IMG/VR virus record: IMGVR_UViG_3300007514_000005
Coordinates: 1-64,000 of that record
Source: a virus
Direction: 5' to 3' (one strand)
DNA: 64,000 bases
Part shown: positions 40,468-64,000 of the stretch, piece after piece
How positions within the stretch are numbered: the stretch's first letter is position 1
Layout of the letters: each line of letters starts with the position of its first letter
Notes under the pieces: model-generated
Seen by the model: only the letters and a program-made list of their open reading frames with translations
Databases searched by the model: none
Told to the model about the DNA's origin: nothing
Made by a program: the position numbers and the translations under genes

Positions 40468-40506
40468 TAAACCACCATATCTTCTATTCGCATATAAACC
40501 TGCGTA

Positions 40507-45171: not shown

Positions 45172-46671
45172 CTAATCACGCGGCAACGCAACCATAGCAT
45201 CACTTAGTAATACTAGGGTCGCAATGGAGACTGCGCTTCGTATGGAATTAACTACCACATCAACGGGGTCTGTAATACCCTGCTCTATCATATTGACCCA
45301 CTCTCCTGTCGCCGCATTGAATCCTATATCCTTATCGTGGGAATAGGCATCGTAGCCCGCATTCTCACAAATTAGTCTCATGGGCATAGAAAAGGCCTTG
45401 CTAATCAAAAGGCTCTCACTACTTTGCCCGTAATAATTAGGGAGAACACCACCGCCCGCAATAATCCCATTGCGTTGGGCCGACCTTACGGCATTAACCG
45501 CGTCATCAATTCTCTCCTTCTTCTCCATCATTTCTACTTCGCTGTTAGCGCCTACCATAATGGAAGCGACACCATTCTCAAGACGGGCTATTCTTCTAGC
45601 GTATGTCTGCTTATCCCAATCGTTGTCTGCTTCCTTCATCTGTTGTTGCAAGTTTTGTGTATGAGACTCTACGGCATTGACCGAGTTTTCTATCACACAG
45701 GAGTCTTTCTTACACACTACTGTATCTAAGTGACCCAAAGGAAAATCCTCAAAATCTATGTTCTTGAGAGTCTTACCTACACTCTTGTCGAGTATTTCAC
45801 CACCCGTAATTGCTTGTATATCCTCAGCCCACGCCTTTTGTGTATCTCCCATACCTGCTAGTTTAACCATAGTAGCATTTATCTTACCTTGAACAACATT
45901 TATCAGTAGGTTAGGAAGGACTGCGGGGTTGTAATCTCCACAGAAAATAACCAAACCTTTGTTCAATTTAAGGCACTCTTCCATCACAGGAATTAGGCTT
46001 TCAAATGAATTTATTTTATCCGTTGTAATTAGGACACTCGCGTTGTTAATTGAGTCGGGGAAGTAGGGGCTTATTGCTCCTGTCTGTAAATCTAACCCGT
46101 CTGTTATCTCGTAGTAAGTCTCATAACTACTACCATTCTTCAAAGCAATAGCGCCCTCAGAACCAATCTTACTCATTACTTCTGCAATCAATCGTCCTAA
46201 TTCTGAGTCGTTGTTGGCCGCAATAGTAGCAACATCAACCAATTCCTCATCATTCTCACACGGTCTTGCGCTTTCTTTAATCTTTGTAATTATGTCTTCG
46301 GACTCTTCCTTCAATTCCTGTGTTATTTCAAGCGGGGAAATGCCGCGCTTGACTAACTCCATGCCTTCGTTGCATAGAGCCTGTGCAATCACAGTAGCAG
46401 TAGTCGTTCCATCACCGGACTTATTTTGAGCCTGTTCTGCAACCTGCTTAATTAGGTCAATACCCATCTGCACATACGGGTCGGGGTCATTAACAGCCCT
46501 TGCTATACTGACTCCATCATTAAGTATGAGCGGGTAGGAATCTTCCTGCTCTATAATCACAGTCCTTGCGTTAGCGCCTAGTGTGCCTTTGACTGCGTTA
46601 GCAACCTTATTCACACCTTGTAATAATTTAGCGCGTGCATCCTTACCTGTTAAAAGCGTTTCTTCCACCAT
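45172..46671 (-). CDS. groEL: Group I chaperonin GroEL
   Basis: ARAKLLQGVNKVANAVKGTLG, NDGVSIA, GDGTTTA, EKKERIDDAVNA, GIIAGGG, GITDP. Confidence 0.95.
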   Translation of the reverse strand: MVEETLLTGKDARAKLLQGVNKVANAVKGTLGANARTVIIEQEDSYPLILNDGVSIARAVNDPDPYVQMGIDLIKQVAEQAQNKSGDGTTTATVIAQALCNEGMELVKRGISPLEITQELKEESEDIITKIKESARPCENDEELVDVATIAANNDSELGRLIAEVMSKIGSEGAIALKNGSSYETYYEITDGLDLQTGAISPYFPDSINNASVLITTDKINSFESLIPVMEECLKLNKGLVIFCGDYNPAVLPNLLINVVQGKINATMVKLAGMGDTQKAWAEDIQAITGGEILDKSVGKTLKNIDFEDFPLGHLDTVVCKKDSCVIENSVNAVESHTQNLQQQMKEADNDWDKQTYARRIARLENGVASIMVGANSEVEMMEKKERIDDAVNAVRSAQRNGIIAGGGVLPNYYGQSSESLLISKAFSMPMRLICENAGYDAYSHDKDIGFNAATGEWVNMIEQGITDPVDVVVNSIRSAVSIATLVLLSDAMVALPRD

Positions 46672-49070: not shown

Positions 49071-49084
49071 GTATCTTCCTCGTA

Positions 49085-49300
49085 GGTGGGGGGAGTGGCT
49101 TTTCCAACGGCTCGCATTTCTTACTTGGATGAGTTAGAAATTTCAGGTGCTTGGATATGGTTTGGACTACCCCAAATGTGTAGCCTCGCCTAAGACAATG
49201 TTAGTTTCAAATGGTTGGTAGAATGGACTCCCATAAGTATTTTCAAGTGTCGCTTATCTCACCAAACCAAATTACGCCTCTTCGGTCTCTCCCCCCAAAC
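49085..49300. ncRNA. Candidate structured non-coding RNA / long structured leader
   Basis: Terminal helix TGGGGGGAG(49087-95)/CTCCCCCCA(49289-97), nested TGGTTTGG(49158-65)/CCAAACCA(49262-69), internal hairpin ~49117-49140; no convincing ORF; promoter motif at 49312-27. Confidence 0.5.
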
Positions 49301-49330
49301 CACACTCTATCTATCCGCATATAAACCTAA

Positions 49331-51573: not shown

Positions 51574-52196
51574 TCTATCACCTCGTAATCAACATCAATC
51601 ACATTAGACGGGGCTTTCAGCGCCGCCATTCTCAATTCTATATCGTCTAACAATTCAGGGTGGTGCTTCAAAGTATCAACAAGTATGCCGCTTAAATTAT
51701 TCATCTGCGCTTGCGCGAGAAGTAATTGGGAATCAACACCAATCTCCTTCTTCAATTGACCTACTAATTTGAGACTTGAGTTAGCCTGTCCTATGAGTCT
51801 TGTGGCGTCAGCAACGAAGTCGGAAGTAATGCCGCCATGTTGCTCCTTTCTCTCTTCTAACTCATCCAAGTAAGAGCGTATTCTTATTACAATATCTTCT
51901 GCTGAGTCGAGCGTGTTAATGGACTGCTCTCTTGCCTTCTCCAAGTGCTGTGCTTCTTCGGGGTCGAATTCAATGTGACTCTCCATGTGGGTCATCACCG
52001 TTCCTTCCGGCCAATTATGTTTGCTCTCTAAATAATCGGGGGAAGTTTCGTCAGCCATCACATCTTTTTCGTAATCCTTTCGCTTTTTATGGTCGCACAT
52101 ACCGCACCCACCATCAAGCACCCATCGGAGCACTTCAATAACGAAAGCATCATTCTCATTAGCAAGTCTTTGTTGTATCTCTAATCGTGTTTTCAT
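51570..52196 (-). CDS. Putative terminase small subunit (Zn-finger/HTH + coiled coil)
   Basis: CGMCDH..R...H..SH, oligomerisation-type helices, C-terminal VIDVDYEV tail typical of TerS-like proteins. Confidence 0.5.
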   Translation of the reverse strand: MKTRLEIQQRLANENDAFVIEVLRWVLDGGCGMCDHKKRKDYEKDVMADETSPDYLESKHNWPEGTVMTHMESHIEFDPEEAQHLEKAREQSINTLDSAEDIVIRIRSYLDELEERKEQHGGITSDFVADATRLIGQANSSLKLVGQLKKEIGVDSQLLLAQAQMNNLSGILVDTLKHHPELLDDIELRMAALKAPSNVIDVDYEVIE

Positions 52197-58701: not shown

Positions 58702-60144
58702 TCACTCTAGCGTGAAATCGTAATTTGCTATTAAGGTAATAATACCTCTCACGCGCTCCCTGAATATGCTTTCCGCTTTTTCAATTGCGTTCAGCAAGTC
58801 CGTTCTCGCTGTCTCAGCATTCTCGTAAGCCTCTTGAGCCGCCTCTAGTGTTGGTAAAGAGTCTATCAATGCTTGACGCCCTTCCGCTACGCGGTCGCCT
58901 TTCCACTCCCACTTCCAATTACCTATTTTTTGAAGCCAATCTTCGCTTACTGTGTCGTCACTAAGGAAAGCCTTAGCATCATCAAGCATCTCTTGGGTAA
59001 TCATCTCATTATCTTCTGTAAAGAAGTAGTGGGGGGCGTAATTGCTTTTTGCATTCCCCACGCCCCTTCTGAAATCTTGCGCGGTAGGTGCGTTCGCCAC
59101 GCCCTCTTTGTATTCCCAACCGTATATCGTGCCTATATCGCTCGCATAGAAATTATGGTGCTCGTTGTCGGTCTCGTTGCACAGGCGCTCCTTGTATATG
59201 TCCTTGCAAACCTTGTTGCCCGCGAGACTTTTTATCAGGGCTATTTTTATCTGCTCCTTAGTCGGTTCTTCACTTTGCAATCTTGCTAGGCACTTTTCGG
59301 TCGCTTCGGTATTATGCTCAGCCGTGTATATGAAGCGTAGAACATTATTTATATTCGCTATACTTTCTTGGTTCGTGCTAAAGTGGTCTGCTTCTACCTT
59401 CCACTCGCTCTCCTTCCTTTGGAACAAGACCTCTAACAAATCGAAGTTAATCACTTGAGCGTTTGCTCTCTTGTTGTATTGTGCGTCAGAAGTGGTGTTA
59501 GGGTTTAGGTGCGTAGCCGCATAGGAATCCCATGACTGCCTCGTTGAATTGTTCGTGACGAATGCCGCGCCCATGCGCTCTAATGCCCGCACTCGGCCCG
59601 CGAATTTTAACACAAAGTCCGTATTCATTTGACCGTATCCACCTACTGTGTTTTCTACTGTGGCTATTAACTCGGCCATTTCCCAAAACCCTGACCTGTT
59701 TTGGTTGCCCGCCTTGCACAGCGTTCTCAAGGCATTGAAGTCACCACCTGAGACGGAAGTTATTTTTCTTATGTCCGTCCTTCGTGTTGAATGGTAGCCT
59801 TCCTTGTTGCCGTAGGTTAGGAGCATTGCCTTTGAAAGAGCCGACTGACCCTTTTCATCTCTAACACTCCACATACCCCACTCACTCTCGGTCTTGCTCG
59901 CCTTGACCTTGCGCATCCTTTCAGCCCACTCTTCGTCAGCGACAATCTCTTCCCAATTTTCGGGGTCATCCAAATCGCTACTATTTATAAGCCTGAAATA
60001 TCTTGCATCAATCTCATTCGGCTTCATCCAAAAACCGGAGCAATCAACATCTTGGTATCGCACCCCAACGCTGTATTCTGTCGCCGTGTATTTTTCATCA
60101 CTACCGTATTCTACGGGCTTCTCAATTATTCTTTTCAATATCAT
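58702..60144 (-). CDS. Large hypothetical early protein
   Basis: 480-aa ORF, no recognisable motif. Confidence 0.75.
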   Translation of the reverse strand: MILKRIIEKPVEYGSDEKYTATEYSVGVRYQDVDCSGFWMKPNEIDARYFRLINSSDLDDPENWEEIVADEEWAERMRKVKASKTESEWGMWSVRDEKGQSALSKAMLLTYGNKEGYHSTRRTDIRKITSVSGGDFNALRTLCKAGNQNRSGFWEMAELIATVENTVGGYGQMNTDFVLKFAGRVRALERMGAAFVTNNSTRQSWDSYAATHLNPNTTSDAQYNKRANAQVINFDLLEVLFQRKESEWKVEADHFSTNQESIANINNVLRFIYTAEHNTEATEKCLARLQSEEPTKEQIKIALIKSLAGNKVCKDIYKERLCNETDNEHHNFYASDIGTIYGWEYKEGVANAPTAQDFRRGVGNAKSNYAPHYFFTEDNEMITQEMLDDAKAFLSDDTVSEDWLQKIGNWKWEWKGDRVAEGRQALIDSLPTLEAAQEAYENAETARTDLLNAIEKAESIFRERVRGIITLIANYDFTLE

Positions 60145-60561
60145 TTACTCTTCCCCCTTAGAAATCTCAAATGTCTCTTCCCAATCGTATTTACAAAATT
60201 CAATCCACTCTTCAAGAGTGAAGTGCTTATTCTCATCCCTATTGTTCTCTAGGTCTCCCTCTAGTGCGTCTAGTGAGCCTCGCATACTTTCTATCAGGGT
60301 TATAATTGGTAATTTCGCAGTCAATTGGCCCTCGTTCATATACATCGTGTATTGCGTTTTCATGGACTCCCAATGCTTGCGGTCGTAAATACTATACCAC
60401 TTCGTGCCGTTAGTCTTTTTACCGTCTGTGCCTAGTATGTATGCCTTCCACAATTCTATTCCATTATCTTGGTATTGTTTGCTCTCAATAACTATTTTTT
60501 TGTTGTTGTGTCTGTTATAGTATATCTCACCCACAACCCACTCTTCTTTCTCGTTGCTCAT
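60145..60561 (-). CDS. Hypothetical protein
   Basis: Start MSNEKEE after GGTGG SD (the track start lies inside a repeat motif). Confidence 0.6.
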   Translation of the reverse strand: MSNEKEEWVVGEIYYNRHNNKKIVIESKQYQDNGIELWKAYILGTDGKKTNGTKWYSIYDRKHWESMKTQYTMYMNEGQLTAKLPIITLIESMRGSLDALEGDLENNRDENKHFTLEEWIEFCKYDWEETFEISKGEE

Positions 60562-60615
60562 ATTTCTTCCACCTTTTCTATCGTTTATTAACTTTTTTTT
60601 TCGACCACGCAAGCA

Positions 60616-60801
60616 TCATCTTGTCTTAATGCCGCCCCCGCGTCCTCTATTGTTATACTTCGTTAGGCACGGGTCACATAGCCATGCTACCATGCCGCTT
60701 GCATTACGCACCATCCTCAAAGGCACGCCTTGTGCTTCGCACACAGGGCAATTACCTAGTCTGAATAAAATGTCTTCACTCATTTTTTTTAGCCCCCCCA
60801 T
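60616..60801 (-). CDS. Zn-finger microprotein
   Basis: CPVC...CDPC. Confidence 0.6.
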   Translation of the reverse strand: MGGLKKMSEDILFRLGNCPVCEAQGVPLRMVRNASGMVAWLCDPCLTKYNNRGRGGGIKTR

Positions 60802-60929
60802 TGAATTAGTCTAGCATTTATCACCGTTATATTACAGGGGTCACAACATCGTCCTTCCTGTGCAATCGGGTCGGGGTTGTGTCCATAACCTACTATGGCC
60901 TCTCCACATATCACACACTCGTCACTCAT
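60789..60929 (-). CDS. Zn-finger microprotein
   Basis: MSDECVICGE...GHNP.P...GRCCDPCN; start approximate. Confidence 0.65.
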   Translation of the reverse strand: MSDECVICGEAIVGYGHNPDPIAQEGRCCDPCNITVINARLIQWGG

Positions 60930-60933
60930 GCTC

Positions 60934-61119
60934 TCAATCCTCAATCGTCTTGAACCACTCTTCTCGGTGGGGGTTCTTGGGCCACACTCCGGTTGCTCCA
61001 CACGAGTAGCACCTAACACCGACCTCAGAAGGTTCGGGGTCAGGCGTCTCGCAGGTGCAAGTGTATGTCGTCATAACTCCACGAAATTCAAATTTTATTT
61101 TACCCGTCATATTATTCAC
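60934..61119 (-). CDS. Zn-finger microprotein
   Basis: CTC...CYSCG. Confidence 0.55.
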   Translation of the reverse strand: MNNMTGKIKFEFRGVMTTYTCTCETPDPEPSEVGVRCYSCGATGVWPKNPHREEWFKTIED

Positions 61120-61325
61120 CTCAAGGCATCCTCAATCTCTTGCATTTCATTTTCTATCTGCTCAAGAGTCTCGCCCCACTCCATCTCGGCATGGTGGCTA
61201 CCCTCTATACCGTAGGGAAGGTCTATGTCTTGCATCGTGTAAAGCAAGGTCTCTACTCCTTCCTTAGCCGTCTCTAACTCAGCGTAGCGGTCAGCAAGCG
61301 CCCTAATGTCGTCAGCAAAAGTCAT
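61116..61325 (-). CDS. Acidic coiled-coil protein
   Basis: 69 aa; GAGGTG SD. Confidence 0.6.
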   Translation of the reverse strand: MTFADDIRALADRYAELETAKEGVETLLYTMQDIDLPYGIEGSHHAEMEWGETLEQIENEMQEIEDALR

Positions 61326-61461
61326 TCATACACCACCTCAAATTCAGAAAGCGCCACGCAATAACGGGGAACAACAAGCCCATGACCTAGCAAAAAGTCA
61401 CGAATCGTTTTTCTACCTTCTTCGTCATGTTTGCTAACATCAATTAGTATGTATTCGCCCA

Positions 61462-61770
61462 TCAGTAATCCCCCCAATCTTCTTCGTCTTCCGCGTCCTC
61501 GTCCTCTATCCCGAACAGGTCGTAAATGTCCTCTTCATCGTAGAACGGGTCGTCCTCAATCTCTAACCAATCGTCCTCATTGGGGTTGCCTTCTGTCTCA
61601 GGAATAATCCCCTGTCGGTATAACTCCTGCTTCTCTTCCTCGCTGTCTCTAATGGTCTTCCTACCGCGACACTCAGGGCATAGTCTAGCCCTTCCTGTCG
61701 GTGTGTAGAATTCATCACTACACGACAAACAATACTTCCATGTGCCTGTGTCCTCTTCGCTGTGTTCCAT
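61462..61770 (-). CDS. Zn finger + very acidic tail protein
   Basis: CLSC...CPEC; C-terminal half rich in D/E with spaced aromatics. Confidence 0.7.
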   Translation of the reverse strand: MEHSEEDTGTWKYCLSCSDEFYTPTGRARLCPECRGRKTIRDSEEEKQELYRQGIIPETEGNPNEDDWLEIEDDPFYDEEDIYDLFGIEDEDAEDEEDWGDY

Positions 61771-61819
61771 ATTTATTGCTCCTATCCGTGCTACTTAAAC
61801 CTTAGTAATCGCCCACGCA

Positions 61820-61976
61820 AGCACCACGCTCCGGTGCGAGCGTAGGGGAGATTGTATGAACCCACAACAGTCCTCAATGGGCGGGGTTCAGCCACTCCCC
61901 CACACCCGACTTTAGGAATGTGCGGCTGAGCCGCCCATCGAGCGTAGGTCGGGGTGAGGGTTCTAACCCCCACCCC
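61820..61976 (-). ncRNA. Candidate structured non-coding RNA
   Basis: GC-rich intergenic segment. On minus: GGGGTGGGGG/CCCTCACCCC hairpin, CCCGAC/GTCGGG, GTGGGGGAG/CTCCCCTAC enclosing TGAACCC/GGGTTCA, CTACGCTC/GAGCGTGG. G-U pairs favour the minus strand. Confidence 0.55.
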
Positions 61977-62004
61977 GTTTGCGTTTTTTTAGGCCTATAC
62001 TTTT

Positions 62005-62982
62005 TCAGGCCACCGTCCTTGCTACTGCGTCTGCCCATGCGCGTGTCTTAATGCGCTGTCCTGTGCCTACTATTGCACTCTCGGCCCTCTTCTCATTGAC
62101 CTTACCATCCTTCGTGGTAATCCAATCGTGGTCTATGTAGTCGCTCACGACATTCATTGCCGCCCAAAGCGTGCCTTCCATGTCGCCGACCTTGTTCTGA
62201 GGCTCGTCCTCAAGTGCTATAACGCGGTTTAGTATGTTGTTGCCGCGTGTAGCAAGTCCGTGTGGGTTGTTCTTTGAAATCAATTCTTCGTTGGTCTGAA
62301 TCGGCAGGTGCTCAAGGTAGAATTCTACCCTCTCGCCAATATCCATTTCTACTTCCATCATGTTCTGAGCGTCCTTAGCCCAATCGTCTAGCATGGTGTT
62401 AGTCATGTTAATGGCCTTCATCATTTCCTCAATCGCCTCATCCATGTTTGAGGTGTGGCGAATTGTGAAAATTCCGTTGCTTCTGCGTGCCTGACCCATT
62501 ACCATGTTCAATTGGTTGCCGCAAGCCATCCTCATTGTTGAGGGAATCACGCGAATACCGCTTGACCCGTCATGGCTGTTCATTAGCGTCATGTAGCCCT
62601 GCACAGGCTCGTTGCCGTTAATCAGAATCTCGTCCGGTAGGGCAAGGTTGAACCATGCCTTTGCGCCGTTATCTATTACGCCTACTTTTAGCCACTCTAG
62701 GTTGCCTGTCTGTGTTAGTCTGTGGGCCAATTCTGCAACATCTTGGTGTTGCTTCACATGGTATGACTTGCCTACTACTCCTAGACACTCGTTGGTGTCG
62801 TCTCGGAATACTCCGCGCTGTCGTGCTGTTAGCATCTCACCGCGCTTATCGTAGAGCGGTTCAATAACCGCATCCCAAGTCAAGCCCGCATTCTTACAGA
62901 CTTCTTCTGCTGTCTCTCCTAGCGCTTCATCCCCGAAGGAACCCCACGCCTCTTGTCTAATTCTGTTCGTCATTTTCTTCAC
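62005..62982 (-). CDS. DUF932 (TIGR03299-like) phage/plasmid protein
   Basis: AGLTW, RDDTNECLGVVG..Y...Q, NSHDGSS, RMACGNQL, IRHT, GTLWAAMN.V..Y.DH. Confidence 0.88.
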   Translation of the reverse strand: MKKMTNRIRQEAWGSFGDEALGETAEEVCKNAGLTWDAVIEPLYDKRGEMLTARQRGVFRDDTNECLGVVGKSYHVKQHQDVAELAHRLTQTGNLEWLKVGVIDNGAKAWFNLALPDEILINGNEPVQGYMTLMNSHDGSSGIRVIPSTMRMACGNQLNMVMGQARRSNGIFTIRHTSNMDEAIEEMMKAINMTNTMLDDWAKDAQNMMEVEMDIGERVEFYLEHLPIQTNEELISKNNPHGLATRGNNILNRVIALEDEPQNKVGDMEGTLWAAMNVVSDYIDHDWITTKDGKVNEKRAESAIVGTGQRIKTRAWADAVARTVA

Positions 62983-63068
62983 TTCTCCTGTTCCGGCTCT
63001 TTGTTGTCGCCGTTATTTGCTCCATCGAACACCCGCATATAACTGTGTCGAAACGACCACGCAAGCAC

Positions 63069-63533
63069 TCAGACCCACCCCTGCTCAATCGCAAACAACA
63101 GGTGGTGAGAGACCCATAGCCCTGAGTCCTCAATCTCGGTCGGGCATATCCATATCATGTCGTCATGCTCTTCCGAGAGCACGACCTTAGACACATCAAG
63201 CCCAACGAATTCAATGAAGTAGTATTGCTTATCCATCTCTTTGTCTATGTGGAATCCCAATTCTTTAGCGGGCATAGAAGCGGTGAGTCCTGTCTCTTCT
63301 TCTAACTCAATTATGGCGCATTCCATTGGTGTCTCTCCTTCCTCTAATTTGCCCCCTGCTAATTCGTAGAGGCCAATACAGGAAGTCTCCATAGGCGAGC
63401 GCCGGAGTAGGAGAATACGGCCCTCAGCATCACGCACAACGCACCCTGCCGCTTTCCTCACTAATCCCACCCCCTTGCTTTCAATTCCTTGTGTATCTCT
63501 CTTCCTCTTACGCGCGCGTGAGGGCTGACCCAC
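63069..63533 (-). CDS. Nudix hydrolase
   Basis: Nudix box GGKLEEGETPMECAIIELEEETGL; SEEHD; real start probably ~63470. Confidence 0.88.
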   Translation of the reverse strand: MGQPSRARKRKRDTQGIESKGVGLVRKAAGCVVRDAEGRILLLRRSPMETSCIGLYELAGGKLEEGETPMECAIIELEEETGLTASMPAKELGFHIDKEMDKQYYFIEFVGLDVSKVVLSEEHDDMIWICPTEIEDSGLWVSHHLLFAIEQGWV

Positions 63534-63646
63534 TCAATGAGGTAGTTATCCTCATCTATGAGTCTGAGCACTAAGCACGCGGCTAATTCGCGCACTAGGT
63601 TCAATCTTTCTTCGGGCATCTCCGGTGTATGTGTATCTTCTACCAT
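63461..63646 (-). CDS. Hypothetical protein
   Basis: 52-61 aa ORF overlapping the Nudix start. Confidence 0.45.
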   Translation of the reverse strand: MVEDTHTPEMPEERLNLVRELAACLVLRLIDEDNYLIEWVSPHARVRGREIHKELKARGWD

Positions 63647-63813
63647 CTAGGCCTGTATTCGTGAATCGAGGACTTTCGAATGTCCATTTCGGACATTCGA
63701 TTTTCCACAGAATTTTTGCCTCTATCTTTCTTCTACGCGCACGCGCGAGGCGGCGGTGCAACGGGCATCCCCCTATAAACCTGCCGCAAACCCCCCAAAT
63801 TAGCCCAAAAACG

Positions 63814-63984
63814 GCATTTGTAGCCAACAAAAACGACCACGCAAGCCCAAAATCGCTAGAAGGGGTCATAGAGCCATTTGTTTGCAAAACAGGTCATTAC
63901 CTACCTGCGACCCCCTCTCGTGGCTATATATACGCTTAGAGACCATTTGTAGCAAAGGCGATTTGTAGCAAGAGGATTTGTAGC
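63814..63984 (+). repeat. Terminal-region ATTTGTAGC repeats
   Basis: 63816, 63945, 63961, 63976; inverted copy GGCTACAAATGC at 136-147. Confidence 0.75.
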
Positions 63985-64000
63985 GAACAGAAAAAAATTG

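Follow-up and report, generated by a model that had tools for sequence, protein, structure and literature searches.

The window analysed here is a stretch of 64,000 nt, bases 1 to 64000 of a 72,008-bp virus record with direct terminal repeats of 119 bp. The genome is that of a tailed phage: its plus strand encodes terminase, portal, tape measure, and tail fibre up to ~37 kb, and the minus strand from 37 to 64 kb carries a replication and early block that includes genes for a family-B polymerase (best identity in the phage collection only ~24%), a clamp-loader ATPase, a DUF932 protein, and a NUDIX hydrolase. A Cpn60/GroEL-type chaperonin gene is also phage encoded (window positions 45172 to 46671, minus strand; Pfam E value of 3e-43). 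The sequence is present in DNA sequencing runs labelled marine or seawater. Look-ups in the PDB and PHROG collections returned no function for DUF932, and none of the DUF932 papers found, judged by their titles and the opening parts of their abstracts, concerns an RNA element. The DUF932 gene and the gene that follows it, both on the minus strand, are separated by a gap of 234 nt (stop codon at 62005 to next start at 61770), and at the element within this gap the local G+C content is ~0.59, compared with 0.45 to 0.50 in the surrounding sequence.

A first-pass annotation of the sequence had placed a structured minus-strand element downstream of DUF932, at 61820 to 61976. An element is indeed present there, but its real span, with coordinates derived by arithmetic and read on the minus (gene-sense) strand, is ~61837 to 61977, slightly past the end originally given, or to 61985 if an A-rich lead is included (Table 1). 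It starts 27 nt past the DUF932 stop codon with P1, one of eight strong hairpins in the 72-kb genome, and continues into a core of two helices, P2 and P3. An 8-mer at 61877-84 that had been reported as complementary to 61931-38 proves to be the core of P2, and a 10-mer reported at both 61837-46 and 61939-48 is a perfect direct repeat, the second copy of which is formed by the last 10 nt of the P3 3' arm. Across homologues, helix lengths are 12 to 14 bp for P1, 9 to 13 bp for P2, and 13 to 15 bp for P3. Since P2 encloses the 5' arm of P3 but not the 3' arm, the two helices either form an H-type pseudoknot or are mutually exclusive, and the crossing fold proposed in the first-pass annotation (a pseudoknot or an alternative fold) is thus borne out by the interleaving of the P2 and P3 arms.

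Table 1. Features at the DUF932 3' end, listed in the direction of transcription, and the clamp-loader leader compared with it
Feature	Position	Strand	Comment
DUF932 gene, 325 aa	62005..62982	-	Pfam PF06067, E 9e-39; from ORF list; stop codon 62005-62007
A-rich spacer, stop codon to P1	61978..62004	-	A-rich lead also in homologues read
P1, 12-bp GC-rich hairpin	61950..61977	-	Arms 61966-77 and 61950-61, 4-nt loop 61962-65; two-sided changes in 7/12 pairs
J1 linker, 7 nt	61943..61949	-	With first 4 nt of P2, forms direct-repeat copy 1 (61939-48)
P2 5' arm (a)	61931..61942	-	3' half can alternatively form local hairpin P2' (61917-61939)
Loop L1	61909..61930	-	18-58 nt in relatives; last 4 nt (61909-12) identical in 8/8 sequences read
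P3 5' arm (c)	61895..61908	-	Lies between the two P2 arms; last 9 nt and 5 nt of L2 form the 14-mer
Loop L2, 10 nt	61885..61894	-	1 nt in L007, L013, L014; 3, 7, and 9 nt in others
P2 3' arm (d)	61873..61884	-	12 bp with 61931-42; two-sided changes in 5/12 pairs
Loop L3	61851..61872	-	11-40 nt in relatives; 6-nt motif 61857-62 kept in 5/6 lineages
P3 3' arm (e)	61837..61850	-	Outside P2; 14 bp with 61895-908; two-sided changes in 8/12 modelled pairs; ends in direct-repeat copy 2 (61837-46)
Stretch next to P3	61808..61836		Belongs to promoter-like box, not to element
Promoter-like 13-nt box	61810..61822	-	Inferred -35 region of next gene, outside fold proper; 6 genome copies
Next gene, 102 aa	61462..61770	-	CxxC...CxxC motif and acidic tail; from ORF list; no family match
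Clamp-loader leader ("49-kb element")	49071..49330	-	Not a relative of the 61.9-kb element

The region folds far better than expected by chance on either strand. The minus strand of 61790-62000 has a predicted energy of -101.2 kcal/mol (z of -5.3) and the plus strand -88.7 kcal/mol (z of -4.7), in agreement with the earlier claim that the minus strand is the better one; none of 200 shuffles was as stable in either case.

We searched for relatives by using DUF932 as bait and then reading the sequence downstream of it, which gave 15 related contigs, or 16 with the window. Eleven of the 16 have a homologous element at the equivalent position behind DUF932 (the window, L006, L007, L008, L009, L011, L013, L014, L015, L065, and L067, with L011 and L065 cut); these carriers, whose DUF932 proteins are 63 to 76% identical to that of the window, include near-duplicates and amount to 8 distinct sequences in ~6 lineages, a small and biased sample that is all DUF932 baited. 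The element is absent from the other five. In L005, the closest relative (DUF932 88% identical), only P1 and the downstream box are kept, and in L002, L010, L003, and L012 (DUF932 63 to 64% identical) the gene is followed by a canonical terminator and then by about ten 13-nt iterons. The 13-nt iteron right after DUF932 in L002 and L003 differs from a 9-nt half-site, ATTTGTAGC, that is abundant elsewhere in the phage genome (see below).

A covariance model built from the window, L013, and L014, with P1 and P3 as its only structure (model R1), found lineages that it had not seen: L007 (54.8 bits), L006 (47.1 bits), L015 (46.0 bits), L009 (45.1 bits), and L008 (24.1 bits). It also matched L067, which represents a further lineage (36.1 bits), and matched L005 across the deletion of the core (25.3 bits). 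There is one copy only in the phage's own 72 kb. A search with R1 of the records of four relatives gave no matches, even where cmsearch on the loci scores 36 to 46 bits, and this negative is uninformative, as known carriers are among the four. We conclude that the element has been inherited vertically within a small clade of marine phages, that it is single-copy, and that it has been lost in the closest relative. The direct repeat on either side of the core, the empty-looking site in L005, and an extra module in L008 speak for gain and loss through short-homology events. The L008 module is an extra structured stretch of ~150 nt between P1 and the core (the locus, 2172-2505 of that contig, measures 334 nt compared with 184 nt in L009). 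A further P1-like hairpin and another copy of the conserved motif at the end of L1 lie within it, and it looks like a tandem, diverged duplication.

The three helices are supported by covariation. In the model-made alignment of 8 sequences, 97.5% of 277 cells are standard pairs, compared with 78.8% after column shuffles and 42 to 60% when the partners are slid by 1 to 3 columns. Two-sided changes occur in 20 of 36 pairs (7 in P1, 5 in P2, and 8 in P3), and none of 500 shuffles reached any of five covariation measures; the sequences are related, so this count is not to be read as a probability, but the slid-partner controls preserve relatedness and still fail. Pairing reaches 97.9% of cells in P2 and 98.9% in P3, and because P2 was absent from the model that made the alignment, its pairing is no fitting artefact. 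A MAFFT alignment of all homologues misplaces the middle of the element, and the model-based alignment puts P2 of L067 out of register, for which reason L067 was counted by hand. Read by hand over their full length in 8 sequences, L067 included, the helices hold 255 Watson-Crick pairs, 33 G-U pairs, no A-C apposition, and one other mismatch. Full complementarity in every lineage speaks for lasting selection.

The same counts identify the strand. Pairing by hand reading is 99.7% on the gene-sense strand and 88.2% on the opposite strand; the helix ends were chosen on the sense strand, which introduces some bias, but internal A-C mismatches number zero. With 33 G-U pairs and no A-C mismatch, the minus (gene-sense) strand is the folded strand. 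An antisense reading, in which P1 and a T-run would serve as a terminator on the plus strand, is ruled out by the same 33 wobble pairs, which favour the minus strand. A small open reading frame was likewise considered and rejected, since a comparison of 7 homologues showed no reading frame that stays open or is conserved. We are highly confident that a real, conserved, sense-strand structured element lies at this position and that it is not kin to a site near 49 kb with which it had first been grouped (see below).

Whether P2 and P3 form together or in turn bears on what the element could do. Their duplex energies are better than those of 300 out of 300 shuffles in all seven sequences compared. 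Under nested folding, the state with P3 and the local hairpin P2', which holds the 3' half of the P2 5' arm, is the minimum in six of seven sequences and lies 0.9 kcal/mol above it in the seventh (L009); when P2 is forced instead, the structure is 2 to 12 kcal/mol worse. Its conservation despite this cost indicates that P2 forms with P3 as a pseudoknot or else forms earlier in transcription, the latter being possible since both P2 arms are made before the P3 3' arm. Interleaved helices, each supported by covariation, are what an H-type pseudoknot calls for; the 1-nt L2 of three lineages matches stacked H-type pseudoknots, and by our own estimate L1, with no fewer than 18 nt, and L3, with no fewer than 11 nt, seem able to span the helices in such a model. 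Further candidate pairings (J1 with the box, the P2 5' arm with L1, which is of the P2' type as segmented, J1a with c, and e with g) were not consistently above shuffles. It is probable that the core refolds while it is being transcribed, and the result may depend on which state it arrives at.

The gene 32 translational operator of phages T4 and RB69 offers a comparison, being an intergenic H-type pseudoknot that covariation preserves. That pseudoknot has short stems and heads the leader of the gene that it regulates, where an unstructured tract separates it from the ribosome site; here, the stems are 9 to 15 bp, the element stands after a gene, and a promoter-like box intervenes before the next ribosome site.

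Searches for a known identity returned no family. With Rfam 15 there were no matches in the window at the gathering threshold, none at an E value of ≤1 in 60001-72008, and, in a permissive scan of 61700-62100, three sub-threshold matches, the best at 15 bits and an E value of 2.6. ARAGORN found no tRNA or tmRNA genes in the window or in L004 (a segment of the same record), a blastn search of 61400-62400 against 50,697 phage records found no match, and an exact scan of viral contigs for the P1 hairpin found none. A gapped pattern scan gave two matches in viral sequences, one true (L015) and one false (L016), and 47 in prokaryote genomes, which is about our own chance estimate; none of these 48 loci (the 47 and L016) matches R1, the best E value being 0.48. 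Known ribozyme and riboswitch families gave no match in the Rfam scans. A switch-like design, as suggested in the first-pass annotation, is compatible with the states found under nested folding.

The element is narrowly distributed. As a covarying, pseudoknotted, intergenic RNA among the early genes of an uncultured marine phage, it resembles the structured orphan RNAs from phages and marine metagenomes that Rfam lists as motif families; it differs from them in that it matches no Rfam family and, to date, is single-copy and has turned up only at the DUF932 3' end. It thus adds to the orphan phage RNAs a well-supported, uncatalogued structured RNA with a clear architecture (a hairpin and a long-stem pseudoknot), a known strand, and a fixed genomic address at the 3' end of a widespread gene, and its natural presence/absence variants are ready-made controls.

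On its downstream side, the element borders on what looks like a separate transcription unit. The 13-nt box begins 14 nt past the element's end and is conserved in the phage and in all relatives, which carry many copies. The six copies in this genome are all on the minus strand (first bases at 63846, 63066, 61822, 60614, 57859, and 54817, the last a variant form); each is followed, 17 nt further on, by a TA-rich hexamer, and in four of the six a start codon comes ~52 nt after the box. Boxes of this type precede five other early genes. On these sequence features, we read the box as the putative -35 region, conserved over an unusual length, of an early promoter class; a generic scan for sigma-70 promoters showed no enrichment. 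The remaining early units abut, with no structure between them. A second motif family, of 15 to 18 nt and without the box, stands directly upstream of minus-strand genes at 40482, 45154, 48171, 49309, 49722, 54765, and 58680 (plus-strand coordinates) and may be a second promoter or leader class.

The best explanation overall, which we hold at a probability of roughly 0.4, is a conserved sense-strand fold that acts in cis on the DUF932 RNA. The element would belong to the DUF932 transcript as its 3' untranslated tail, or to a read-through RNA as an intercistronic segment, and would act on its own RNA, with P1 as a hairpin protecting the 3' end and the P2/P3 core as a putative processing or stability module, cut or bound by a nuclease or protein and comparable to phage intercistronic RNase III sites or to retroregulation. 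Such a module would govern processing, stability, or read-through at this border and would separate the DUF932 message from the next transcription unit. The P2 5' arm would have two partners, one in the nearby hairpin and one in the distant P2 3' arm. This particular mechanism of processing or stabilization is one that we propose tentatively, at well below even odds.

The closest parallels are the intercistronic RNase III sites of T7 early RNA and lambda sib, each of which is one irregular hairpin spanning some two turns of helix. Shared features are a conserved RNA structure that separates or follows early genes of a phage and, as proposed here, a cis effect on message ends and stability, a protective 3' hairpin, and a form that depends on read-through. 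Here, however, a hairpin is combined with two interleaved helices, sequence likeness is absent, and cleavage is only putative. The position of the element suits a site of this kind. The fit to RNase III itself is uncertain: its substrates are usually single hairpins of ~20 bp, and in our model of the element a helix of ~26 bp would exist only if P2 and P3 stack. The core is dispensable, as L005 keeps only P1 and the box and the relatives with 63 to 64% identical DUF932 use a plain terminator at this place. That relatives manage with a plain hairpin or terminator here does not account for the upkeep of so elaborate a fold with sequence-conserved loop motifs.

Alternatively, the DUF932 transcript might release a stable small RNA of ~150 to 180 nt, capped on its 5' side by P1 and on its 3' side by the pseudoknot, that acts in trans, for example as a decoy or sponge in the early, possibly anti-defence, block. 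The elaborate fold, the conserved unpaired motifs at 61909-12 and 61857-62, and the stable helices at both ends would suit such an RNA, as would its setting among small early genes, the NUDIX hydrolase gene included, and the dispensability of the core in one close relative is what one would expect of an accessory function. We nevertheless consider a small RNA unlikely. No promoter or terminator of its own is seen, P1 stands directly after the stop codon, the element's end has no U-run, and no target or partner has been identified. In the sole metatranscriptome run that contains the phage, two low-depth contigs map within 59500-64000 (at 61391-61599 and 62020-62388), and the element is covered by neither, which applies to the cis reading as well.

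A cis-acting transcription element is quite unlikely. It would be either an unconventional stop or insulator that shields the next promoter from read-through polymerase or a put-like RNA that modifies the polymerase. Its position favours such a role, in that it lies between two transcription units and ends 14 nt before the next promoter-like box, the relatives without the fold have a canonical terminator at the same place, and this genome's other early units have nothing between them. P1, a GC-rich hairpin of 12 to 14 bp right after a gene, resembles a rho-independent terminator, and a true one occupies this place in relatives; the T-rich run, however, is on the opposite strand, where the helices carry A-C mismatches. 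P1 was rejected as a rho-independent terminator because the GC-rich hairpin, although present, lacks a sense-strand U-run behind it in every homologue read; P3 and the later hairpins have none either. The genome does have a canonical terminator at another place (67173-67202, plus strand). The downstream terminators that an antiterminator would need were not found, and put RNAs are two plain stem-loops placed just after promoters, unlike the element described here.

If the two-partner design of P2 were a real switch, the element would offer a compact model of co-transcriptional refolding in early gene control. One could go further and see in it a two-state phage RNA device of a new class, a pseudoknot that refolds co-transcriptionally, with the P2 5' arm choosing between a near and a far partner, and that acts through a switch in the fate of the early message, self-cleavage, or protein-binding decoy activity in an early anti-defence block (NUDIX hydrolase, DUF932, and the small acidic zinc-ribbon protein), but we regard so specific a device as quite improbable.

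Distinctly improbable is an action at the level of DNA, as a single-stranded-DNA signal for priming or recombination near an origin, or an origin of the element as the remnant of a small non-autonomous insertion with the 10-bp direct repeat on either side. The repeat is perfect, there is a presence/absence polymorphism (the empty-looking L005 site and the extra ~150-nt module of L008), an iteron-like cluster and a minimum in GC skew lie only 2 kb away, and G-T pairs suit DNA as well as RNA. Yet the divergence of the element tracks that of DUF932, which, with full complementarity in every lineage, points to long vertical descent under selection and not to a decaying insertion; moreover, the genome has just one copy of the element, neither a transposase nor an HUH gene was seen, and pseudoknots are not known as features of priming signals. 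Frpo and ssi sequences, single-stranded-DNA promoters and priming signals that stand beside DUF932-type genes in plasmid leading regions, are similar in being strand-specific folds adjoining a DUF932 gene, but this phage is not a transferred plasmid strand, the fold forms no duplex -35/-10, and its topology is that of a pseudoknot.

It is very improbable that the element is a new class of ribozyme whose self-cleavage would cut the polycistronic early RNA. A pseudoknotted fold with a few invariant unpaired nucleotides and an intercistronic place in a phage speaks for this reading, but there is no ribozyme family match at an E value of ≤10, the stems far exceed those of known small ribozymes in length, and the junctions vary far more (L2 of 1 to 10 nt, L3 of 11 to 40 nt). 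An HDV-like layout was tried and fails, since it needs a small hairpin in L2, and no hairpin fits the 1-nt L2 of L007, L013, and L014.

Finally, the idea that the 61.9-kb element and a 49-kb element form one motif family sharing a 14/15-mer helix arm, as the first-pass annotation had it, is almost certainly wrong. The recurrence itself is real: positions 49086-100 on the plus strand repeat the minus-strand 14-mer of 61890-903 with a G added, the rest of the window has no better gapped match to the element, and at both sites a downstream C-run can pair with this sequence. The match is statistically borderline, as 3 of 200 dinucleotide shuffles reach the best alignment (16 letters with one indel) and 55 of 200 reach 14 letters. 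The two copies are on opposite strands although both gene blocks are on the minus strand; the 15-mer stands on the plus strand 16 nt upstream of the start codon of the minus-strand clamp-loader gene, and the transcribed strand there consequently carries the complement of the 61.9-kb arm. The helix closed by a C-run that had been described at 49 kb is predicted on both strands, but the 260-nt region as a whole is no more stable than its shuffles (z of +0.85 on the minus strand and -0.25 on the plus strand, with 154 and 76 of 200 shuffles, respectively, folding at least as well). Nor is the sequence of the arm kept in relatives. Apart from the window's own lineage, just the L013/L014 lineage has a similar arm at 61.9 kb; in L006, L007, L009, and L067 the arm is unrelated, so that its sequence is not conserved in four of six lineages, and at 49 kb the 15-mer is absent both from G002 (clamp loader 80% identical), which has a leader of ~125 nt, and from G003 (clamp loader 66% identical), in which some blocks of the leader are conserved. 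Model R1 has no match at 49 kb at an E value of ≤10, and none in those relatives' leaders (L064 and L072) at an E value of ≤1. The lack of conservation of the 14-mer, which the first-pass annotation had itself named as evidence against its proposal, disposes of the sequence motif and leaves the structure at 61.9 kb untouched, and a false lead, the supposed two-locus family, is thereby removed.

The clamp-loader leader has features of its own. Blocks of it are conserved with G003 and partly with G002 (49071-49330; L072 ~1170-1500; L064 ~2370-2500), and although its fold is not unusual in stability, this pattern of sequence conservation suggests that it may represent a leader element in its own right. 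One arm of a perfect 21-nt inverted repeat lies in this leader (49119-49139) and the other 2.7 kb away inside a gene for a 208-aa protein (51855-51875), with a chance expectation, by our own estimate, of ~1e-3; as both arms are on one transcribed strand, the two RNAs could pair.

Several observations were made around the end of the window. The 150 nt at 63678-63827 are 99% identical to L005, where the surrounding 2.3 kb averages 76%, and this stretch covers the region just downstream of the box at 63846. Beyond the window, the genome at 64.1 to 65.5 kb (4100 to 5500 in L004) is GC-rich and lies at the divergence point of two early arms; it has no Rfam or Pfam match, and codon periodicity in comparison with L005 is confined to 64578-65027, the rest being gap-rich and apparently non-coding. 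The 9-nt half-site ATTTGTAGC occurs in ~75 copies from window positions 63816-64000 on to 71.8 kb, many of them in palindromic pairs. A tight cluster at 63.94 to 64.12 kb coincides with the minimum of cumulative GC skew, and the array is probably an origin or operator system.
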